64,000 nucleotides of DNA, from NCBI GenBank assembly GCA_963811105.1, contig CAWEPZ010000011.1, positions 128,001 to 192,000 of the forward strand, read 5' to 3'. The first letter of the stretch is position 1; each line of letters begins with the position of its first letter. The translations under genes were made by a program, and so were the position numbers. The notes beneath the pieces are model-generated. The model worked only from the letters and a program-made list of their open reading frames with translations, did not search any database and had not been told where the DNA came from. Positions 5,182 through 52,709 of the stretch are shown here, piece by piece. The stretch comes from Candidatus Bathyarchaeota archaeon. GTDB taxonomy: Archaea; Thermoproteota; Bathyarchaeia; Bathyarchaeales; Bathycorpusculaceae.

Positions 5182-6186
5182 TTATAAGGAAACAACACAG
5201 CGTCCACCCGCAGCTTTATAGACCGCACTGACAATTCGCATTGCTACTAATCCGTCGTATCCATTTGCCAAAGGCTCACGATCCTCTTTAATACAGGCAA
5301 CAAATTCCTTCCACTCTTCACACCACGACCGGTCGTCTCCACGGAATTCAACAACCTCTTCAGCAAAAGGCTTTGCGAAATCTTTTCTACCAAAAGTTAG
5401 GCACTCATTACCATAGCTACCACCTAGACCCTCAGCTACAACATATCCTTCGGATCCAAAGACTTCAAATGAAAACAAGTTCTTCCATTGCGTTAAACTG
5501 GCATGAATAGATGCTACCTGACCTGCTTTCGTTCTAAGCAAAACGAATCCGTTATCTTCTACTAAATTCAAATTTGGTAAATAGTTTGCCATGAAGGCAG
5601 AGACCTCAATAAATTCCCCTAAAAACCACCGTGAGAGATCAATCGCATGCGTTCCTTGATCCATCATCTCACCGCCTCCAGCAATCTCGGGATTCGCTCT
5701 CCATTCCTTTTCAAAACCGGGTCTGCCTCCAATGCCATACCTGCAACGAACAAAATTCGGCTCGCCAATCTCACTTAATAAGAGTTGCTTAGCTTTCTGG
5801 ATAGCAGGGTGAAAGCGGTGATTTAAGCCGCATTTTAACTTTACGTTATTTACGTTTGCCGCCTTGACCAAGGCTTCTGCCTCTTCAACGGTTCTGCTGA
5901 GTGGTTTTTCGCACAAAACATGTTTGCCACTTTCCATTGCTGCTAAGCCAATTTTAGCGTGAAGGTGAGGCGGAGTGCAAATTACAACTGCATCTAAGTC
6001 GTTTCTCTTGACTACATTTTCCCAGCCATCAGTAGATTCGCATCCGAAACTTTTAGCCAGAGCAGCAGATTGAGCAGATTCCGCGTAATCGGCACTTATT
6101 ACAACCAGTTCTGATCCGAGAGAGCTTCGGATTGCCGGAGCTCTTCGCCTGGCTTGAAGACCAGCACCTATTAACCCGACTCTCAC
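5182..6186 (-). CDS. Gfo/Idh/MocA family oxidoreductase
   Basis: GLIGAG, CTPPHLH, GKHVLCEKP, GGGEMMDQGTHAID. Confidence 0.92.
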   Translation of the reverse strand: MRVGLIGAGLQARRRAPAIRSSLGSELVVISADYAESAQSAALAKSFGCESTDGWENVVKRNDLDAVVICTPPHLHAKIGLAAMESGKHVLCEKPLSRTVEEAEALVKAANVNNVKLKCGLNHRFHPAIQKAKQLLLSEIGEPNFVRCRYGIGGRPGFEKEWRANPEIAGGGEMMDQGTHAIDLSRWFLGEFIEVSAFMANYLPNLNLVEDNGFVLLRTKAGQVASIHASLTQWKNLFSFEVFGSEGYVVAEGLGGSYGNECLTFGRKDFAKPFAEEVVEFRGDDRSWCEEWKEFVACIKEDREPLANGYDGLVAMRIVSAVYKAAGGRCVVSL

Positions 6187-7512
6187 GTCTTGACCCCCAA
6201 CATCAACTGAAAGTCGCGTCCTCTACCACACCAAGGTAAACAAACCCCATATTAATCAAACTCTCCGCATCTAACATGTTTTGGGCGTCAATGATGACTG
6301 GCTTTTTCATCAAAGATTTAAGGCGCGGGAAATTTAACTCTCTAATTCTGGCCAATCGGTTACGAAAATTAATGCATCACTTTCTTTAGCCGCGATCATG
6401 GGATCCGAACAAAATTCAAATTCAAGTTTTCCTTGAATTTCACTAAGGTCAGCTTTGGGATCGTAAGCCTTAATTCTCGCACCACCAGCCACTAAATCAT
6501 TAATTATCTCGATTGAAGAAGAACAACGAAGCGTGCTGGTTCCAGCTTTATAAGTCAGTCCGAAAACGCAGACTGTTAAGTTCTGAATGGAACCATATAG
6601 TTTCTGCAACTTTCCAGCAATGATCTTGTTTTGTCGCCGATTTACTTCAAAGACACCGTTAATTAGCCGAGTTTCATAACCAACCTCGGCACCAAGTCTG
6701 AAGCACTTTGACATCCCGTCCTAATGCTCCACCTGCAAAACCTAAACCCGGCTTCAGCATTGCCTTAGGTCCTATTCTGCTATCTAAACGTAATGCTTCT
6801 GCAACCTTTAATGAGTCGGCACCAACTTCGTCGCAAATATTGGCGATTTCGTTAGCAAAGCTAATTGAAGTGGCTAAGAAGGCATTAAGGGCATGCTTAG
6901 TCATTTCCGCAGACCTTAAATTCATTTTTATCTTTGGGTCTTTTATGACGCTGAAAAAAGCCTCCACTTTATTCAAGGTACTCCTGTTGTCGGCGCCAAT
7001 AACTATTCTTTAGGATTCATAAATCTGTTAATGGCTTGACCAAGCCTAAGGTTTTCAGGAACACATGCCACATCAAATTCTAAGGCGGGTCTTTTCTTCT
7101 TGATTAGAGACTTTAGCTTTTCACAAGTACCAACTGGAACTTGACTACTGATAATAACTATAGACCCACTTTCAAGAGATCCAGCTAATGCGAGGTGGCG
7201 TCATAAACTCGGACAAATCTATCTCGTCGTTATCATCCACGCGAGTGTCAAAAGTAACAACAACAAAATGTGCCCCTTTGACTGCACTTCTAATATCTAT
7301 AGTGTAACTTAATTCGTTTAGATAAATATTCTGAGGATAAGACCTCCAAGCTCAGGCTCAAACAAAGGAGGAATACCTTTGTTTAGGTTCTCAACTCTTT
7401 TGCTGTCTTTATCAAAACCAACCACTAGATACCCTAAGTCAGCAAGACACGCTGAATATACGGAGCCTAAATGCCAAGTTCCTATAATGCAAACCTTAGA
7501 AGGATTTTCCAT
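6183..7512 (-). CDS. UDP-glucose/GDP-mannose dehydrogenase family protein (several frameshifts)
   Basis: Fragments: CIIGTWHLG...PLFEP; PENLRLGQA; SAEMTKHALNAFLATSISFANE; DSRIG; GFAGGALGRD; GLTYKAGT; YDP. Confidence 0.85.
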
Positions 7513-44223: not shown

Positions 44224-45588
44224 CTATTTAAAAGCTGAAAGGTGCTCAAGCTTCATTCCTCGATGTGCCAAGTCTGGAAGGTCTTCTACGCTTCCTATGC
44301 TGGCGTCAATGTTACGGTGGATCGGGTGGCTCCAAATGCCTTCAGGTGAAAGATTAAACTGCAAGGGAACATCTACTTTAAGACCATATTTTTCAATTAA
44401 ATTCTTAATTAATCTTCCTTCTCGACAGGCTATACGACCAGAACGATAGCTCTGCAGCAGCTGTGGAGCTGCAAATGCGCCAACACCATGCCAAACAGTC
44501 GCATCCTCAGGAGAGCCAATCGAGTAAAGGAAGAACTGGGGAGAAGAAGGCGTTTCAGCGTAACTGTAGTCAGCAAGTTTTTCGCCGGGTACAGTGAAGC
44601 TGTCATCGCACACTGCTACGGCTATGTCTTCAGGGTCCATGGCGTTAGGGTAGAGTTTGGTTGTTTTGTATTTAATGGTTGCATCAAGTAATTTGCCGTT
44701 TTCAAAGTGTAGTTTACCGCGGGCAGCACGTTTAGAACCAAACCCCTTTTTGGAATGCGGGATTGTTAAGAGAGTTGTGCGGTTTTTCAAGCTGCGACCC
44801 ATGCATGTGTATGCTTCTTCAATGGACGCGTAATCATGGTTACTTTCTTGAATTATGTGATGTAGCAAACCGTCTTTGGTTTCTGTTTTCAAGGTTGAAA
44901 GCGGCATACGCAACGTGTAAAGTGAAAGATCCATTCCGAAGAACTCTGACAAATCTTTTAGTTGGTGGTACTTGATGGAATCTACCAGATCAAGATATGA
45001 ACCGTTGCTATCTCTCAGGCTTTCCGTAATGAGCGTGCCTTCTTTTTGGGATATTAGACTGCCATCATATTTTTTGACGTATGCGTCGTCAATCTTGAGT
45101 TGGTCAGTTTTGACATTGGCCGCTGGAAACGCACTTTGTCCACTATCGACGATTGACTGTTTGAGTGGATTCATGGAATATCGGTCGGGCTCCACATCGT
45201 CAGTGTTTAAAAGGAAAGGCACAATGTAGCCTTGCGTAGGTTTCTTTAGCAATTCTGCAAGCGCAACTACGTCTCCGTCGTCTGGCCTGCGCAAACCGCG
45301 CTCATAAAAGTAGTTGGCGCAGGTTTCAAGCAGTCGTGTGCCGACTAATCCTTGGACCTCCTCGACCGTCAACTGTGGATTAGTGTATTCAACCGAGCCG
45401 CGCAAATAGAACCGTTCATCTGAGAATGGAAAAGAAACTTTCTTGTCGTTAACATATCGGAACAACGTTACTTTGCGATTGCTGTTCTTGCCTTTTGCAG
45501 CAGCGGCTCCTTCAACTAGAACCTTAACAGTTGAAAAGGAAGATTTCAAAAAATCCTCAAGCAAAAATCTGCAGTAGTCTTCACTCAT
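44224..45588 (-). CDS. Hypothetical protein, 454 aa
   Basis: Long intact ORF tightly packed between the GNAT and HExxH genes; no domain recognised. Confidence 0.8.
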   Translation of the reverse strand: MSEDYCRFLLEDFLKSSFSTVKVLVEGAAAAKGKNSNRKVTLFRYVNDKKVSFPFSDERFYLRGSVEYTNPQLTVEEVQGLVGTRLLETCANYFYERGLRRPDDGDVVALAELLKKPTQGYIVPFLLNTDDVEPDRYSMNPLKQSIVDSGQSAFPAANVKTDQLKIDDAYVKKYDGSLISQKEGTLITESLRDSNGSYLDLVDSIKYHQLKDLSEFFGMDLSLYTLRMPLSTLKTETKDGLLHHIIQESNHDYASIEEAYTCMGRSLKNRTTLLTIPHSKKGFGSKRAARGKLHFENGKLLDATIKYKTTKLYPNAMDPEDIAVAVCDDSFTVPGEKLADYSYAETPSSPQFFLYSIGSPEDATVWHGVGAFAAPQLLQSYRSGRIACREGRLIKNLIEKYGLKVDVPLQFNLSPEGIWSHPIHRNIDASIGSVEDLPDLAHRGMKLEHLSAFK

Positions 45589-45592
45589 AATT

Positions 45593-46432
45593 TTAACCTC
45601 TCTCTAAAGATTCAGCCAAGTATATACAATTTCTTGCCATAGATCGACCTAAAAACATCCGTAAAACCGAAAATTCTTCCTTAAACCCAAATTTAATAAG
45701 CACGTCAGAGATTTCAATCTCCTTTTTTGGCAGCGCCACATAAACACTTTTGCCACTCAATTTTGCGAGAACTGATTTCAAAAGCAAACATGCACCATCA
45801 GTTCTACCTTCTTGGCACACCAATGGTCCAACCCAAGCCATTTTCTCGTAAACCGTAGAAGCAACATACCCAACAATTTTTTGGCCCTCAGCCAAATAGT
45901 AGCATAAATTTCCTTCTTCATAAATAATGGATCTTAAGAGCTTTTTTCTGTCGCCGCCAAAACATGCGTTGTCAAACTTAATTATCGACTGAACTGCTGT
46001 TGTGGTTGGCTGCAACAGAGTCTCGGCATGCGATGATTGAAGCGTTTCTACACTTAGAACAGAAAAGTCTTCGTCCCTTTTGAAGCCTTGGCGTCCGTAA
46101 AAGTTAAGGAGGTTTGGGTAAGCGTAGAGCCCAATGGTTTTGACTCCTCTGCTTTGCAAATAATCAACAGCGCGCTTGACAAGTAGACTTCCAGCTCCTT
46201 TGTTTCGAAATTCTTCTTTAATAATTAGGTTACCGAACCAGCCGACCTTTCCGAAGCTGATACATGTTGCTATTCCTATTTGTTCAGAACCATCAAAGAG
46301 AACAAAACATCCTTGAGGCTCAAGATTAAGCATATACGCAAAGTCTTCAGGAACCATATTCCAATTCATAGTATTGGCTAATTTGGCTGCAAACAGAAAA
46401 TCAGCGGCGCTCATCGGTTTGACTTGAAGCAT
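45593..46432 (-). CDS. Tandem-GNAT acetyltransferase (YitH-like)
   Basis: GWFGNLII.EEFRNKGAG...FYGRQGF; second domain WVGPL...LERG. Confidence 0.88.
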   Translation of the reverse strand: MLQVKPMSAADFLFAAKLANTMNWNMVPEDFAYMLNLEPQGCFVLFDGSEQIGIATCISFGKVGWFGNLIIKEEFRNKGAGSLLVKRAVDYLQSRGVKTIGLYAYPNLLNFYGRQGFKRDEDFSVLSVETLQSSHAETLLQPTTTAVQSIIKFDNACFGGDRKKLLRSIIYEEGNLCYYLAEGQKIVGYVASTVYEKMAWVGPLVCQEGRTDGACLLLKSVLAKLSGKSVYVALPKKEIEISDVLIKFGFKEEFSVLRMFLGRSMARNCIYLAESLERG

Positions 46433-46520
46433 AAAAATTAAACGGTAAATCTAGGAATTAAGCGTTTGAAAAAAGGCGAAGCCTTCTATCCTGTTGACAA
46501 TGATAAACAAAGCTTCACAA

Positions 46521-46920
46521 CTAATTATCTCCAACAGTTTCTTGAGAAACAAGTAATCCGTAATAGTTGAAGCATTTATCCTTTTTTTTGGAGGTCAACA
46601 TAACATAATAACCGTTGAATCTAGCAATCGTAAAATCTAAGCGCAATTCTTTTTTGGTTGCAAGTATTTCTTCTATTAGAACTTGTTTAACTGGAAAACT
46701 CTTCATTTCTGCTCCCGTAAGTCGCGTTAAGGCACTTTGCGCCTCAGGTAACGAATTGGCAGGTATTATCCCGCCAGTTTTCCCTCTTCCGATGACGGGA
46801 ACCTGAGCCTTAACCATGTAGGGAAGGTTTAGAATTACTCAATATAGGAACTGTCTGCTTGGAGTCAGAGATTAAAATTCCTTGGAATCGGGATTCGTTG
46901 CCTTAGCAGCACTTGCTTTG
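46521..46920 (-). pseudogene. sucC: Truncated succinyl-CoA synthetase beta-like (ATP-grasp) remnant
   Basis: VKAQVPVIGRGKTGGI...VKQVLIEE...KEL matches SucC VKAQV..GGRGKAGG; the upstream IPIP.G segment is frameshifted and the C-terminal ~60% is missing. Confidence 0.7.
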
Positions 46921-47103
46921 TCTCAATCTCAATTAAGTTCAAAATTATTAATAATTTTGCAATTGAGAGATAAGAATTTTTTTGGTTTAGCGTGCATGCT
47001 TCCAATGGGCAGCACTTCAGCCCGTTTAGAACTCTACGCTTATCAGAGTGAAATTCATACTACCCATAAGGTGATATAGTAAACAACTGGTTGATAAGGA
47101 AAA

Positions 47104-47878
47104 ATGCATGTTTCCCAAATAAGGAATGTCTCAGATATCGATTTTGTCTTCCCAGTTGGCTTCTCGTTCTTTGAACCTTATCTTCAATATCATATCAAAG
47201 AGATTCTTGAAATAGGCGGCGAGGTCTATGTATCAAAAACCTCTGAGGGCATTATTTCAGGTATTTTCATTTATGACGACTTTGAGAAAGGAGGAACAAT
47301 TTACACAAGATCGAGGGAATTGTTTGACTACTTTTATGGTTTAAAACAGTTCAATTTTCTCTTCTCAGAGATGAAAACTGAGCTTGAAAATGAAATCTAT
47401 GATATTTATACCATAGACATCAAACACCTTGCCCTTGCTCATAGATTCAGGTATGAAATTTCTACAATGGACAATGGAAACGTAGGTGAGATAGAACAAT
47501 TCATGTCTTCAACCCATCAAGGCATAAACAAGAAGTGGGTAAAAGTTGCACTCAAAAACAGAGACAGGTGCTACATTGTCAGACTAAGCAACGAAATTGC
47601 TGGGTTGGGTTGGGTTTCACTTGTCAACGGTATTGGAAGACTACACTCTCTTTACGTGAAACCTCAATACAGAAGAATAGGCATAGGAGAAGATATCCTC
47701 AATGCACGACTTCTCTGGCTCAAAGTCAAACCATGCCCATTCAGCATTCACTGAAATTTCACACTATAACATCCCATCTTCAAATAATGTCATGAAAGCC
47801 CAAATGAAAGTATCTGGACAGGTTTTTCAGTATTTTAAGAAGGACTTGGACAAAAAGAAGGAACTGAAAAATCAGTAA
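47104..47878 (+). CDS. GNAT acetyltransferase (frameshift near 47730)
   Basis: GRLHSLYVKPQYRRIGIG; the other frame continues SAFTEISHYNIPS...KNQ* to 47878. Confidence 0.8.
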
Positions 47879-47883
47879 GATAT

Positions 47884-48951
47884 CTAGGTTCTAGGAGCAC
47901 CACATATAGGACAAGTTTCAGCTGTAGAGTCTATAAGTGCTCCACAGTAGCGGCACTTAACCTTCACAACCTCCTTAATCACAATCTGCTGTACTTGCGG
48001 TTGCTTTGGAGTTAGATCGATTCTCTCTGGAGGGGGACTTGGCGGAGGAGGCTGTTGTTGGTACGGATGTTGGGGAAGAGTTTTTCTGCTTATTCTTGAA
48101 AATGCATAAATCAGAATTACAATGATAACAATAACTAAGATAACTAGGGCTAGTCCTGCTATGAAACCAATATATAGGATTGGTTGTGGAGTTGTTCCGC
48201 CGGGGTTGCTGACTGCCGGGCTTGGAGTTTCGCCACCTGTATTGTTTGGGAATGCAGCTGTTAGTGGATAGCTAGTTGAATTCACATACAGGTTTTCGGT
48301 GTAGGTGAACCCTGTTCCTGAAATGTTGGTATCTTGTTCATCATAGCTATATCCTACAATATATCCCGTGGACGGGTCAAAATAGGCTTTCCATATATAG
48401 GTGGCACTGAATTGCCCGTATACGTCGTTCCGCTCGTATACCGACTGTCCTTGAGCAAAGATCACGTTCACATTTCTGCCTTGGGACGTAAGATAGTAGC
48501 TGTAATTTTCGGATATGACTGTCATCTCTGTGTTCAGAAGAGAAAAGGTACCGCCCACAGGAATTGAGTTATCCATAACGAACCAGACAGTCGGATTAGT
48601 ATATCCTGTCTGGTCGTCAGTTCCATTAACATAAAGAAAAGTAACTGGTGAGAATGTGAAATCTCCAGAAGGATTCCCCGTTTCTGTTGTGCCTGTGCTG
48701 TTACTCCAGGTGTAGGAGTAACTATAGTGGGCGGATACAGTTCCTTCAGTATTTACGCCATTCATTGTTTCTATTCCGTTATATGTTGCATGTTCGCTAT
48801 ATCCAGTGTAATCGCCTGTGCCACTTCCAAGATCTGTTACCTCGTAGTAGCTGAAGTGGTCTCCGACATGGGGAACGTAGGCTGCAGCGACAGGAGCAAC
48901 AAATAGAGCCAAGAAAAGTGAAAGTATTATTACAAAGGACTTTGAGTTCAT
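47884..48951 (-). CDS. Signal-peptide, single-TM surface protein with cytoplasmic Pro-rich linker and zinc ribbon
   Basis: N-terminal signal (AAA-Y), Thr/Tyr/Gly-rich ectodomain, TM helix, QQQPPPPSPPP, CRYCG...CPICGA. Confidence 0.85.
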   Translation of the reverse strand: MNSKSFVIILSLFLALFVAPVAAAYVPHVGDHFSYYEVTDLGSGTGDYTGYSEHATYNGIETMNGVNTEGTVSAHYSYSYTWSNSTGTTETGNPSGDFTFSPVTFLYVNGTDDQTGYTNPTVWFVMDNSIPVGGTFSLLNTEMTVISENYSYYLTSQGRNVNVIFAQGQSVYERNDVYGQFSATYIWKAYFDPSTGYIVGYSYDEQDTNISGTGFTYTENLYVNSTSYPLTAAFPNNTGGETPSPAVSNPGGTTPQPILYIGFIAGLALVILVIVIIVILIYAFSRISRKTLPQHPYQQQPPPPSPPPERIDLTPKQPQVQQIVIKEVVKVKCRYCGALIDSTAETCPICGAPRT

Positions 48952-50504
48952 CCCATGAAACCTCCTACACCATGCACATGTGCAGGATGATAGCCGCCAA
49001 TGCCGCTGTATGTCGAATGGTAAGATGAGTGTGCAATAATAAGAGGCACATGGTAGATGAAGAAAACGTTTGTTGGAATATAAATAAACTGCACTGGAGT
49101 CTTCACAATAGTTGCGGTTGGATCAAGTTCCTTTACAAGTTCATTTTTGATTCCATGAATCATCCTAACTGCAAGACTTACCACTTCAGAGCGTTCAAGA
49201 TCTTTAACATAAGACCCAAGCAAAAAAGATGCCTTTTCCATCAGGTCAAGAGTCTCATTAGCTTCAAGAGTTGATATTGAAGCAAGTATTGCAGAAGCCA
49301 CAAGTGGATACTCAAGATAATTCCTAAGCCCATTTTCAATTATTGTTAACTTCGACTTCACGTCTTCCGGCCCTAAATCGGAAATCGCTAAATAGGCCGA
49401 AGCAAGCTCGGTATCCTCTGATAGCTCAAATCCCCAAGAATTAAAAAGAAATCTGAAGGATTGGAACTTGCTAGCCAATTGGTCTGACGGCACATTAAAT
49501 ATCGAGAGTATTGCAGCTGACTCGTAAGAAGAAGTCATTTTGGAAAATTCCATAAATCGGTCAGTGGGAAAAGTACCGTCATATCTCTGCCCAAACAGAA
49601 TAGTGGCAGCAACGCCGACTGAAATCGGATCAGGAACGTGCGCGTCATGCCTTAGTTGGTGGTCTATTTTAGATAAGCGGTCCGATAAGTTCTGAAGATC
49701 AGAATTTGTTGTCGTTTGAGAGGGATCTGCCCTAGAGGCAGCCATAATTTCCCCTGTCATCATCTTATTTTCAAGAGTGCAATCGAAATGGCGGAGGAGG
49801 TCAAGTGCAAAAAGAAACCTTTGACCAATTTGGTTTGGGTCGCCTTGAAGCTTGGCCAAACCTATCGATATGCTCCAGAGCTGAGAGAGGTCCATTTCTG
49901 GGAAACTGATTTTAAGATTAGAGACGTGATAGCTAGCTCTCTCCGCTATGTATCGCAATTCGCCGAAGGTAGTTTGGATTTCTTCAATAAAATCGAGAAA
50001 TTCCTCATCAGAAACTCTGTAATTTCTTACGATGAGATCGTTTAGCATCATTATTCCAACACCCGTAAGCGACAAATATTTTCCATCATATTGTACCATC
50101 CTGTCCATTTTGGATTTCTTGTGAATTAGTTCGTTAATCTTGGCTTCTCTTTCAGTTATGTCAACGTCCATTTTTGAGACTATGGATTTTTCGTTTTCTA
50201 CTTTTTCCCGTTCAGCTTCTTTATTCTCTTTGTCTTCAAAAAGAAATGTGATTGAATGAGTTTTCTTCTCCTCTTCTTGCAGAGCGATCTTTGCGCTCCT
50301 GTCGGCATTCGTTGCATTGACCAAGTCTATATTCATCTGTGTCAAGTTTGAAACTTCGGCTACTGCCTTATCATAATCTTCTTTTTGCATTGTTGAGAGG
50401 TAGCCTTTGTTGCTGAGAAAATCCATGTCGGACGGTTGAACCTGCATCGAAACGGATTTTTCAGCTATTTGGGTGAAGAACGTTCTTACGTCGTTGCATT
50501 TCAT
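48948..50504 (-). CDS. Hypothetical protein: coiled coil, helical repeats (DUF4003-like) and His/Gly-rich tail
   Basis: E/K-rich coiled coil at aa ~40-135; Ala/Leu-rich helices; ends AHSSYHSTYSGIGGYHPAHVHGVGGFMG. Confidence 0.75.
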   Translation of the reverse strand: MKCNDVRTFFTQIAEKSVSMQVQPSDMDFLSNKGYLSTMQKEDYDKAVAEVSNLTQMNIDLVNATNADRSAKIALQEEEKKTHSITFLFEDKENKEAEREKVENEKSIVSKMDVDITEREAKINELIHKKSKMDRMVQYDGKYLSLTGVGIMMLNDLIVRNYRVSDEEFLDFIEEIQTTFGELRYIAERASYHVSNLKISFPEMDLSQLWSISIGLAKLQGDPNQIGQRFLFALDLLRHFDCTLENKMMTGEIMAASRADPSQTTTNSDLQNLSDRLSKIDHQLRHDAHVPDPISVGVAATILFGQRYDGTFPTDRFMEFSKMTSSYESAAILSIFNVPSDQLASKFQSFRFLFNSWGFELSEDTELASAYLAISDLGPEDVKSKLTIIENGLRNYLEYPLVASAILASISTLEANETLDLMEKASFLLGSYVKDLERSEVVSLAVRMIHGIKNELVKELDPTATIVKTPVQFIYIPTNVFFIYHVPLIIAHSSYHSTYSGIGGYHPAHVHGVGGFMG

Positions 50505-50509
50505 TCCAA

Positions 50510-51712
50510 TTACCGATCCAAGATTGGAAATTCCTTTGTTAAACGTTGTTCTCCTAATATATTACCTACTACCAGTTTAAGGGTTTGCCCCTCACTTGCA
50601 AGGCCAACAACCTCATCATCCTTAAGAGCTTCTTTGAGAAAATATTCGAACTGCACTTGCCTGTCCATCCAGTCTCCGAATCTTGCTGATCGTTCTCGTT
50701 CTATTTGCTCATATGCGTACATGAATTCGTATAGAGATCTGTATATCTGGTCGTCAATCTTTTCTGAGATTTTCTTTTCCTCAACAGTTATCCATTCTAG
50801 ACCTTCAAGGTCAACAAAGTAAATGGTACCATCAGGAGCGAGAACAGCATCCTTGTCTAGCCAGACGTCGTAGAAATCCAATCCACTGAAAGTTCCATCG
50901 ACATTGCTTTTTAACGTCCTGACAAAAAGTGTAAGATACGCAATTCCACTCTTAACAAAATTTAGCAGAAACTTTAATGCTTTATCGTTCTTGTCTAATT
51001 CAAATAGGTTAAAGACTGATCTTATATTACTGCCGACTGTACTTCCTGAATGAAAATAAATCCTAACATTAGATGGAACCAATCTTGTTTCCTGAACCAT
51101 CCGCCCCCTGAATTTGCGATACCAGTATATTTTTTTGATTTCATTCTCTAAATCATCAGGAAGGAAAGCGATTTTCACAAGAGGTGCAATTCGAAATCCA
51201 TTAATGGAGGTAAGGTCGGCCATTTCCGACACTCTCATCGAAGTGGTTGCGTGCTCAAGTCCCTGTCCCCCATATGGTGAACCTCTTAGCCATAATTCCC
51301 CTGTTAAGTATCGAGGAGCCGTTTCCGCCGAACTAGCTATCATTTCTTTTAGTTTGGAATCTTTCAGCAGGTTGCATATTTCATCTTTCCCCAGTAGCCG
51401 ATGGGAAAAAGGATTGGTTGTTGAACCGATTCCTTTTACAGAAAGGTAAAAGTCAGTGCCGTCCATCTTCAAAGATGGCAAAGTGGAAACTGCTCCTCTA
51501 TTATCATCCGCAACAAACTCTCTGGTAACCAAGGGGTTGAGATAGGTGAAAGGCTTCATACTCTCAGGAAGGTGAATTTTTTCAAAATCATCCATTTTGA
51601 ATCCCTGAAAATGCCTGTTTGTCAGCATTTCAGAAGCTTCATATATATTCAGATTGACGGGTGAGCCTTTCAGCCTCATAGTCGTTCGGCATTTGTATGG
51701 ATGGTTTAACAC
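50510..51712 (-). CDS. Protein kinase-like fold protein resembling SelO/YdiU
   Basis: DDNRGA, LSVKGIG, SEMA, RLVPSNVRI and DKDAVLAPDGTIYFVDLEG occur in the order of SelO GDGRA, QLKG.G, SEAM, RVAPSHIRF and TDN...IDYG. Confidence 0.6.
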   Translation of the reverse strand: MLNHPYKCRTTMRLKGSPVNLNIYEASEMLTNRHFQGFKMDDFEKIHLPESMKPFTYLNPLVTREFVADDNRGAVSTLPSLKMDGTDFYLSVKGIGSTTNPFSHRLLGKDEICNLLKDSKLKEMIASSAETAPRYLTGELWLRGSPYGGQGLEHATTSMRVSEMADLTSINGFRIAPLVKIAFLPDDLENEIKKIYWYRKFRGRMVQETRLVPSNVRIYFHSGSTVGSNIRSVFNLFELDKNDKALKFLLNFVKSGIAYLTLFVRTLKSNVDGTFSGLDFYDVWLDKDAVLAPDGTIYFVDLEGLEWITVEEKKISEKIDDQIYRSLYEFMYAYEQIERERSARFGDWMDRQVQFEYFLKEALKDDEVVGLASEGQTLKLVVGNILGEQRLTKEFPILDR

Positions 51713-52204
51713 TTAAGCTTTCTTGCCTAACCACTTGGAAGCACAAAAAATCGTTTATGGGTTGTTAACTTACGGTAAGGGGTTTACCCATTTAAGGGAG
51801 CAACTCCGCGGGCTTACTGAATCCTTCGATTTAGTTAAGAAAACAGAATATTTGAGCTTAAGCAAAAAGAATTCATACCCGTTTCAGACTATGTGAAAAC
51901 TAATTTCAATTTCAGAAAATAGACATATTTATACCCACATGTTAGGGCTTAGGCACATCTTTTCACGCACAAGAGCCAAATTCTAAAATTAAATTTGAGT
52001 TTTCACGCCTCTGTTTGAGGGTAAGTCTGGTCCGATTCAACCTTCTATCAAAGAACATTTAAGGTCTTGACTCATAGAGTCAAGTGGCAATTGACCCATG
52101 TATAAATGTATTATCTTAATCAGTGGAACGGGTTATCTATCTTGAACAGTCTCCACAGAGAGGATTAACCTGCAACATCTGTTTAGAGGCCTATTGATGT
52201 TACG

Positions 52205-52450
52205 CGTATTTTTCTGAAGTACGTAAACATCTTGTATCGTTACAAGTCCGTCATCGCCAACTATTCCTTTGAGTTCCGGAAGCAGAGGCTCAAATTAAGA
52301 TTGCTAATCCACTACTTCAACAAAATTTTATGCCACGAAAAAATTTCATCCAGCACCTTAGCTGAGACTACCAGAATACAAATAGTTATATGGAGCTCAG
52401 CAGAGGGTCTAACGCCATGGAAATGCACCTTCTTATTAGAAACCTTCATT
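52205..52450 (-). pseudogene. DUF190 (PII-like) protein remnant
   Basis: Minus-strand reading VEVVD*QS*FEPLLPELKGIVGDDGLVTIQDVYV resembles the DUF190 C-terminus, with two nonsense codons. Confidence 0.5.
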
Positions 52451-52709
52451 TTAACTATTTAGTTCACACAGACAATTGGTTTCTTTTGTCATCATGCAAC
52501 TTTTTTTCTCTAAAGAATTACCTTGAAGCTCTTTCCTTAAAGGAATACTGATGAATGCACGTTTGTGTAAGCTGGTGTTAAGCTTTGGCGTCAAAGTTTG
52601 GAGAGCTTGAAGACCTCATTGAATGAGCAGAAAAATTACCCTTTTTGCGGAATCGCGGAGTTTATTAATGCCAATTCATTAGACTTGAAAAGAGGTAGCA
52701 GCTACCAAA

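Follow-up and report, generated by a model that had tools for sequence, protein, structure and literature searches.

What does a SelO-like enzyme do when an archaeon encodes it beside a helical protein with a histidine-rich end and a membrane protein with a zinc ribbon, and does it belong to the SelO family at all? The question is raised by a locus in a 64,000-nucleotide (nt) stretch of DNA from a Candidatus Bathyarchaeota archaeon (assembly GCA_963811105.1, contig CAWEPZ010000011.1, positions 128,001 to 192,000), here called the window; all coordinates given without a locus or sequence name are positions in it. Three genes lie there on the minus strand: g1, an open reading frame (ORF) at 50510-51712 for a SelO-like kinase-fold enzyme of 400 amino acids (aa) from a GTG start; g2, an ORF at 48948-50504 for a helical protein of 518 aa; and g3, an ORF at 47884-48951 for a type-I-like membrane protein of 355 aa. 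Since the g1 homologues are mostly 389 aa long, an ATG at 51679 is the likelier start of g1 (389 aa). An earlier description made from the DNA letters only (the sequence-only reading) had presented these as three tightly coupled genes, and the minus-strand ORFs, the 5-nt spacing between g1 and g2 and the ATGA overlap between g2 and g3 were all verified. The trio is conserved together, but the real unit has four genes: that description overlooked g4, which is convergent with g3 (47104-47878, plus strand, with a frameshift bridged) and encodes an N-terminal domain followed by a RimI-like GNAT acetyltransferase domain, recognized by the Pfam family Acetyltransf_1. The locus is a conserved module in four parts, linked to the membrane, with an unnamed relative of SelO at its centre.

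The evidence for a four-gene unit comes from its conservation. A pattern scan of 185,579 species genomes yielded 235 loci encoding a g1 relative, and the best 80 were kept. They belong to Bathyarchaeia, Nitrososphaerales, Thermoplasmata and Conexivisphaerales bins, many of them from bog, palsa, peat and soil. Based on profile searches, g2, g3 and g4 were all present at 69 of these 80 loci, and at 49 of the 50 that have at least 4 kilobases (kb) on both sides of g1; the exception, L061, has no detectable g3. The other 10 incomplete loci extend less than 4 kb from g1 in one or both directions, and most reach a contig end near g1. A g4 homologue was found by phmmer at 75 of the 80 loci. A metagenome scan with a distant clade of the family added 80 further loci, and all four parts were present at each of the 17 with comparable room around g1. 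The g1 homologues do co-occur with g2 and g3, and they do so across archaeal phyla, the point that the sequence-only reading had left to a neighbourhood survey. Three gene orders were observed: 1) g1-g2-g3 with a convergent g4, as in the window, at 46 genome loci, 2) g2-g3-g1-g4 on a single strand at 23 genome loci and 3) a g3-g4 fusion followed by g1 and g2 at 18 metagenome loci of the distant clade. Clustering of all the ORFs of the 80 genome loci revealed no fifth conserved gene. The closer the g1 of a locus is in identity to that of the window, the closer its g2, g3 and g4 also tend to be (Spearman 0.94, 0.80 and 0.89, respectively); as the loci are kin, these values describe co-inheritance and are not an independent test of it. 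The four genes are co-inherited.

The central protein, g1, belongs to a family without a name. No Pfam or NCBIfam model matched it, and a phmmer search of the PDB sequences with the single g1 sequence gave nothing usable (best E 4.2). The family comprises 1,333 proteins at E <= 1e-3 in a 90%-clustered collection, every named member being called 'hypothetical'; in 1.84 billion 50%-clusters it has 119 representatives, 46 of which match at E <= 1e-30. Nine of the longer or most distant relatives were also compared with Pfam, and no family was found in any of the nine. An alignment of 42 full-length, diverse homologues with 18-90% identity to g1 (alignment A2) contains nine invariant residues, G94, G148, P177, Q207, R210, P213, S214, R217 and D301, and twelve that are at least 90% conserved, R72, K93, G96, P146, L211, F248, K287, D288, G295, F299, L302 and E303. 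The SelO/YdiU-like motifs that had been listed in order from the sequence coincide with this conserved core, and the protein of about 400 aa indeed lacks a C-terminal cysteine or selenocysteine (Cys/Sec) tail, since it ends in ...FPILDR with no Cys. Beta-propeller matches obtained with the profile of a first alignment (A1) were false and came from a PQQ beta-propeller contaminant, P0352, which A2 excludes. A scan of viral contigs with the most distant g1 relatives produced 73 pattern matches, none of which was confirmed. One distant g1 cluster is labelled 'Deltaproteobacteria bacterium'; the presence of the family in bacteria is possible but unproven.

In fold, g1 stands closest to SelO. The AlphaFold2 model, built from A1, is confident (pLDDT 92.2, pTM 0.91). 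An exhaustive structure comparison with VIA against 48,161 PDB chains ranked the SelO of Pseudomonas syringae (6eac_A) first, with Z 16.0 and a root-mean-square deviation (rmsd) of 4.0 A over 268 aligned residues, followed by SbnC (Z 12.9), AcsD (11.8), AsbB (10.5) and IucA (10.0), with protein kinases at about 9. In a second structure comparison the seven SelO/YdiU entries occupied ranks 1 to 7 (Z 14.7-15.9), NIS synthetases lay at Z 9.3-13.0 and no ordinary protein kinase scored above 9.9. The SelO/YdiU alignments to the g1 model cover 260-269 residues with an rmsd of about 4 A and a sequence identity of 10-14%. Foldseek agreed: all seven matches at E <= 1e-3 were YdiU entries (best E 1.6e-4), one of them titled only 'an uncharacterized protein', and P. 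syringae SelO 6eac followed at E 3.1e-3. The kinase-like fold suspected from the motifs is thus borne out, with SelO/YdiU as the best structural match at Z 15.9-16.0. Compared with the SelO/YdiU entries 6eac, 6k20, 6lna, 6iii and 9jym, g1 shares a collinear D-x-R loop and K-G-x-G and apparently also R-x-x-P-S-x-x-R, and a D ... D pair that may correspond lies similarly far downstream. It differs in having about 50 extra residues between the Lys and the next helix, in lacking the C-terminal helical domain and Cys/Sec tail of SelO (400 against 478 aa) and in being always encoded with three partner genes. In the SelO family itself the C-terminal Cys/Sec redox motif, which PMC3281104 describes, is common and not universal. 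In the ESM Atlas, a cluster named 'MchC protein', 35% of whose members carry PF02696, is a feature-level neighbour of g1 (score 0.93). Calling g1 SelO-like from its motifs was therefore right as to fold, in which SelO/YdiU is nearest, but in sequence g1 falls outside the SelO family, having no PF02696 match. Within the kinase-like superfamily it forms a family of its own, to which SelO is the closest relative known, and the name 'SelO-like' fits it where 'SelO' does not. The enzyme looks catalytically intact.

Concerning g2, none of its 682 homologues bears a family name, and a g2 profile found nothing usable among the PDB sequences. The organism names attached to the g1 and g2 homologues point to the Bathyarchaeia as the source of the DNA. 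Its AlphaFold2 model (pLDDT 80.8, falling below 50 at residues 454-518) consists of a small N-terminal domain, an antiparallel coiled-coil hairpin at about residues 54-134, a helical repeat body at about 170-450 and a tail at 454-518. The coiled coil, the helical repeats and the unusual terminus noticed from the sequence all reappear in this layout. The only relatives that Foldseek gave for the repeats are designed alpha/alpha toroids (4yxx, prob 1.0, TMt 0.55), and the VIA matches of the model were rejected as coiled-coil look-alikes confined to hairpin residues 38-141. The end of the tail (residues ~470-518, 48951-49097, minus strand) runs from a hydrophobic stretch through a Ser/Tyr-rich segment to G-x-H-P-x-H-x-H-x-x-G-G-x-x-G, which closes the protein with a final Gly. 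Across 26 sequences, down to 37% identity, G504, H506, H509, H511, G514 and G515 are invariant, and conservation is 90% or more at H492, P507 and the terminal G518. Charged residues are absent from the tail, in which four His are conserved. When only proteins of 450 aa or more are counted, a Gly closes 60 of 65 archaeal and 15 of 17 distant-clade homologues. At three loci g2 is split: in L061 (5270 onward), L068 (4642 onward) and L073 (4628 onward) the body ends at a true TAG or TAA, in L073 with a second in-frame stop a few codons later, and the His/Gly tail belongs to another ORF of about 125 aa, which begins with a C-x-x-C ... C-x-x-C zinc ribbon of its own and continues through an acidic linker and the hydrophobic stretch. 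Because it is a separate ORF at these three loci, the tail can be regarded as a detachable module. Prediction of a complex between g1 and g2 scored 0.00, which is evidence neither way.

The membrane link is provided by g3. Its hydrophobic segments are residues 1-30 and 254-292, the latter with a hydropathy maximum of 3.66 and containing a strong span. Between them lies an ectodomain of about 230 aa in which Tyr, Gly, Trp and Asp are invariant at many positions and N-x-S/T sites occur several times, for which no relative was found in Pfam or in the PDB sequences, where the profile search returned only a zinc-ribbon look-alike and noise. The span is followed by basic residues, a Pro-rich linker and a highly conserved C-terminal zinc ribbon (residues 330-353, 47893-47964, minus strand), which was recognized from its conserved Cys and from two Pfam matches just below threshold, Zn_ribbon_3 at 24.6 bits (cut-off 27) and Zn_Ribbon_1 at 23.6 bits. 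Its four cysteines, C333, C336, C347 and C350, are invariant in all 12 aligned homologues. The leader, membrane span, Pro-rich linker and zinc ribbon of the sequence-only reading were thus all found again, but its placing of the ribbon at the cell surface was not upheld: as basic residues follow the span, the usual topology rule predicts that the ribbon is cytoplasmic.

As for g4, the ORF as sequenced covers 47104-47754 on the plus strand (216 aa) and is cut short by one extra A, since AAA at 47722-47724 is AA in the DNA of the close relatives L007 and L011. Without the extra A the frame runs to a TAA at 47876-47878 and reaches the usual C-terminal end, as in the homologues of 250-270 aa. Contigs from all four public runs examined, which belong to two studies, lack the extra A; in the best run this accounts for only 8.1 of 17 depth units, and no run covers the whole stretch (largest share 0.51). 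The sequencing runs listed include none of RNA. These contigs derive from close relatives and so do not separate the two explanations: the assembly may be in error, or the strain may really carry the lesion. In the assemblies of two close relatives the g1 or g2 frames appear broken or fused: L007 has a long ORF at 6001-7479 that runs from g1 into g2, and L020 gives only partial g1 and g2 matches; both may reflect insertion or deletion errors like that of the window g4. The C-terminal half of g4 exceeds the Acetyltransf_1 cut-off (28.5 against 20.7 bits), as do homologues and fusions at 34-55 bits, and it contains the coenzyme A (CoA)-binding motif R-x-x-G-x-G as RRIGIG. Matches of g4 and its homologues extend to Acetyltransf_7, _10 and _3 besides _1. 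Compared by profile with solved structures, g4 is nearest to RimI (9mto, E 3.5e-8), and the other matches are small GNATs that include the N-terminal acetyltransferases Naa30 and ARD1 and small-molecule GNATs. Unlike RimI-type GNATs, g4 has an additional N-terminal domain of about 120 aa from no known family, and it is dedicated to the module. In the distant clade the g3 counterpart ends in a GNAT domain instead of a zinc ribbon (Acetyltransf_1 43.6-55 bits), and this fused GNAT is homologous to the window g4 ORF (phmmer E 1e-7 to 1e-15). We found 33 such fused g3-g4 proteins at E <= 1e-10, of which the only one named for an organism comes from a Thermoplasmata bin.

How might these four parts work together? 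We tentatively favour a self-contained, membrane-anchored enzyme module of four proteins in which g1 would transfer adenosine monophosphate (AMP), g4 an acyl group, and g2 would serve as scaffold or target. The suggestion of an undescribed archaeal, membrane-linked protein-modification module, made before any of these searches, was a fair description, although the module has four genes and not three. In this proposal g1 would bind adenosine triphosphate (ATP) or another nucleoside triphosphate in the manner of SelO, with K93 and the pair R210/R217 holding the distal phosphates and D288/D301 the metal. It would then transfer a nucleotide monophosphate, rather than the gamma-phosphate, onto a substrate oxygen; we infer this because the two structural families nearest to g1, SelO/YdiU and the NIS synthetases, attack the alpha-phosphate and because the Lys and the Arg pair are apparently kept. 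An acyl group would be moved by g4 from acyl-CoA at the cytoplasmic face of the membrane, where g3 would hold the acyltransferase, by a covalent link in the fused clade and, in the window, probably by means of the zinc ribbon. The g3-g4 fusion speaks for a site of g4 action on the cytoplasmic side of g3, and for an unfused g4 the ribbon is the obvious candidate for a docking piece. The helical protein g2 would be a dimeric scaffold and the most likely target, the candidate site being the His-Pro-x-His-x-His ... Gly-COOH tail.

The choice of that terminus rests on a bacterial analogy. According to PMC3281104, MchC/MceJ is a remote SelO homologue that works with the acyltransferase MchD/MceI, and PMC3281104 and PMC7680869 have the pair acting on the conserved C-terminus of a polypeptide encoded in the same gene cluster. 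Specifically, in siderophore-microcin maturation MceJ and MceI modify the C-terminal carboxylate of microcin E492. The resemblance to the archaeal module is that the SelO-like g1 is coupled, at 49 of the 50 loci, to an acyltransferase, g4, and to g2 with its conserved C-terminus; by this analogy the invariant g2 terminus is the preferred target. DfoC, according to its PDB title a fusion of an acetyltransferase with an NIS synthetase, is a second precedent for such a pairing. The differences are plain as well. MchD/MceI belongs to the HlyC family whereas g4 is an ordinary CoA-type GNAT, the microcin precursor has about 80 aa whereas g2 is a scaffold-like protein of 518 aa, and no siderophore, glycosyltransferase or export genes like those of the MchC/MchD clusters were found at the module, which is also archaeal and anchored to the membrane through g3.

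The part assigned to g1 can be compared with what is established for SelO. Enzymes of the SelO/YdiU family transfer AMP or UMP, through the alpha-phosphate, to side chains of proteins. The review PMC8097203 reports that SelO transfers AMP and binds ATP in a flipped orientation, that in the P. syringae protein K113 together with R176 and R183 holds the gamma-phosphate, that E136 steadies the Lys and that N253 and D262 hold the metal. We prepared a SelO profile from Escherichia coli SelO together with eight SelO genes carried on plasmids, whose identity to the E. coli one is 31-44%; K107, R170, R177, N247 and D256 of the E. coli protein are the corresponding invariant residues in this alignment. 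A SelO-like stretch on a Riemerella anatipestifer plasmid (L093, NZ_CP081932.1, 301-1737), which has an internal stop and no annotated gene and is probably a pseudogene, was left out of the profile. The best hhalign block places g1 67-98 on E. coli SelO 82-112 (E 9.5e-4) and pairs R72 with R87 and K93 with K107. A looser run added a weak, collinear second block, g1 197-218 on SelO 157-178 (E 0.094), which pairs R210 with R170 and R217 with R177; both Arg are invariant in the g1 family, and their spacing is identical to that of the SelO pair. It is plausible, from these alignments, that the Lys and the Arg pair of g1 have counterparts in the gamma-phosphate contacts of SelO. Downstream, D301 is invariant and D288 nearly so, and their assignment to the SelO metal site was made by eye.

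Several results weigh against the proposed AMP and acyl transfer onto g2. At the sequence level, PF02696, the SelO family, did not match g1 or any of 43 family members at E <= 1, the hhalign comparison of the two profiles reached only 22% probability over the 31 columns of the first block, and against E. coli SelO alone the g1 profile scored 5.7%, on a different and unrelated region. The third motif block (DKD ... DLE) was not aligned by hhalign and is mapped by eye only, and alignment A2 contains neither a conserved Glu in the helix expected to bear the equivalent of SelO E136 nor a conserved Asn partner for the metal site. The partner proteins raise objections of their own. The HlyC model (PF02794) matched neither g4 nor its homologues at E <= 0.1. 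HlyC-type acyltransferases have been reported to have a GNAT-like fold. Unlike a short precursor peptide, g2 is conserved along its whole 518 aa. Moreover, if the hydrophobic stretch of g2 spans the membrane, the tail would lie outside the cell and beyond a cytoplasmic g1.

That last point leads to transmembrane sensing, which is the alternative that survives best and which we still consider doubtful. The extracellular g3 ectodomain and the His tail of g2 would bind a ligand, such as a metal ion. Equally doubtful is the output that would follow, in which the signal would pass to the zinc ribbon and the g2 body, and g1 and g4 would modify a cytoplasmic target. The architecture of g3, with a leader, an ectodomain and one span, suits a sensor, as do the four conserved His of an uncharged g2 tail and the split form, whose tail piece resembles a tail-anchored protein. 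In the distant clade the hydrophobic stretch ahead of the tail has the score of a membrane span (Kyte-Doolittle 2.38), and were this stretch to cross the membrane the sensing explanation would gain. It is, however, marginal in the window (1.67) and below threshold in a Thermoplasmata homologue. Also against sensing, none of the four proteins matched a known sensor, transducer or DNA-binding family, and no regulated target gene is conserved beside the module.

The second-best structural family opens a different and less probable possibility, the biosynthesis of a small molecule or surface polymer, which we regard as unlikely. Here g1 would adenylate a carboxylate in the manner of an NIS synthetase and condense it with an amine or a hydroxyl group, a precursor would be N-acylated by g4, and g2 and g3 would anchor or export the product. 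The NIS synthetases (AcsD, SbnC, DesD, AsbB and AlcC) align with nearly the whole g1 model (275-296 residues, at the Z values given above), their chemistry is AMP-forming, as the PDB titles of their AMP and ATP complexes indicate, and they are often partnered or fused with an acyltransferase, so that the pairing of a GNAT with an NIS synthetase is known from DfoC; an accessory gene set of patchy distribution would also suit a trait resembling secondary metabolism. Yet SelO/YdiU scores about 3 Z units above these enzymes, and the only sequence-level alignments of g1 are to SelO motifs: no similarity in sequence to the NIS synthetases was detected, and g1 has no IucA/IucC Pfam match. It is also about 180 residues shorter than these three-domain proteins of about 580 aa and lacks their N-terminal part, the aligned ranges of their chains starting at about residue 130-160. 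No precursor-supplying enzyme, transporter or siderophore pathway gene is conserved with the module, and the nearest solved relatives of g4 include, besides small-molecule GNATs, the protein N-acetyltransferases RimI, Naa30 and ARD1.

More improbable still is that g1 is a conventional phosphotransferase moving the gamma-phosphate to a protein or small molecule, or a pseudokinase that serves as a non-catalytic scaffold. Its fold is that of the protein-kinase-like superfamily, with hundreds of protein kinases at Z 8-10, and a conserved Lys after the third strand and a D-x-E/G motif would fit phosphotransfer. Protein kinases nevertheless fall 6 Z units under SelO, and by eye, an inference and not an alignment result, no conserved Asp occupies the position of the kinase catalytic base. 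A pure scaffold, for its part, would not be expected to keep nine residues invariant and twelve more nearly so, clustered as they are in the predicted active site.

It is very improbable that the module activates and conjugates the C-terminus of g2. In such a scheme g1 would adenylate the carboxylate of the terminal Gly and g4 would pass the terminus to an acceptor, thereby anchoring g2 covalently at the envelope; the logic would be ubiquitin-like, with a kinase fold standing in for an E1. To receive the terminus from g4, held at the membrane by g3, the acceptor would need an amine or hydroxyl; lipid head groups, glycans and g3 itself would be candidates. The same very low probability attaches to the idea that these parts act here in a role in which they have never been seen before. 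Finally, a place in a defence island, suggested by the patchy distribution, was rejected, as no PADLOC defence model matched g1, g2, g3 or a full-length g4 homologue at E <= 0.1 and no defence genes are neighbours. Among the PHROGs families there was likewise none for g1 or g2, and g3 gave only weak rows at E 0.03 or worse.

The patchy distribution is clearest among close relatives. We found g1 in 6 of 41 related genomes (5 of 24 other genomes of the same genus and none of 16 that represent other families in the order), and g2 and g3 were adjacent to g1 in all five of the other same-genus genomes that have it. The neighbouring genes are ordinary, such as mobB and mobA-like ORFs, and are not conserved with the module. 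In a same-genus genome without the module (G013), the corresponding slot (L177, contig G013:C39, 2490-7040) matches window positions 46433-52709 and holds instead a ModABC-like ABC transporter and an AIR-synthase-like gene, between mobB/mobA and the genes for GNAT279 and a 454-aa protein. The slot is variable within the genus. In the window these last two genes are on the minus strand: GNAT279, a second and unrelated GNAT of 279 aa (45593-46432; Acetyltransf_18 and Acetyltransf_1), and the 454-aa protein (44224-45588; no Pfam family). Both are placed outside the module because they are conserved in same-genus genomes that lack it. Next to g4 lies a 98-aa SucC-like ATP-grasp fragment (46521-46817, minus strand; Pfam ATP-grasp_2, 41.6 bits), and elsewhere full-length sucC-like and sucD-like genes flank g4, at 10 and 9 of the 80 loci, respectively. 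The fragment, seen beside these full-length neighbours, suggests that the module moved into the slot with a piece of its old neighbour. In the tentatively favoured explanation the module moves as a unit between soil and peat archaea.

Among the papers that the literature searches listed, we found no description of the g1 family or of the module. The module is present in at least 235 species genomes; the environments in which it occurs are soil, peat and sediment, and its hosts belong to Bathyarchaeia, Nitrososphaerales and Thermoplasmata. SelO is among the most widespread of kinase-fold enzymes, yet canonical SelO was found in none of 201 genomes sampled from this phylum; a six-frame search of the window's own genome for the SelO family was equally negative (0 of 1), as were searches of archaeal relatives (0 of 3 and 0 of 61). 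What these archaea carry is a separate, unnamed branch of the SelO fold with its own fixed set of partners, a four-part, membrane-anchored archaeal unit of a SelO-like protein and an acyltransferase that is without a described counterpart. If the proposed activity is true, the transfer of AMP to a partner protein, or the modification of a protein terminus together with a GNAT, as MceJ and MceI do on a microcin, would be new kinase-fold chemistry in archaea, and it would give a function to about 1,300 proteins now called 'hypothetical'.

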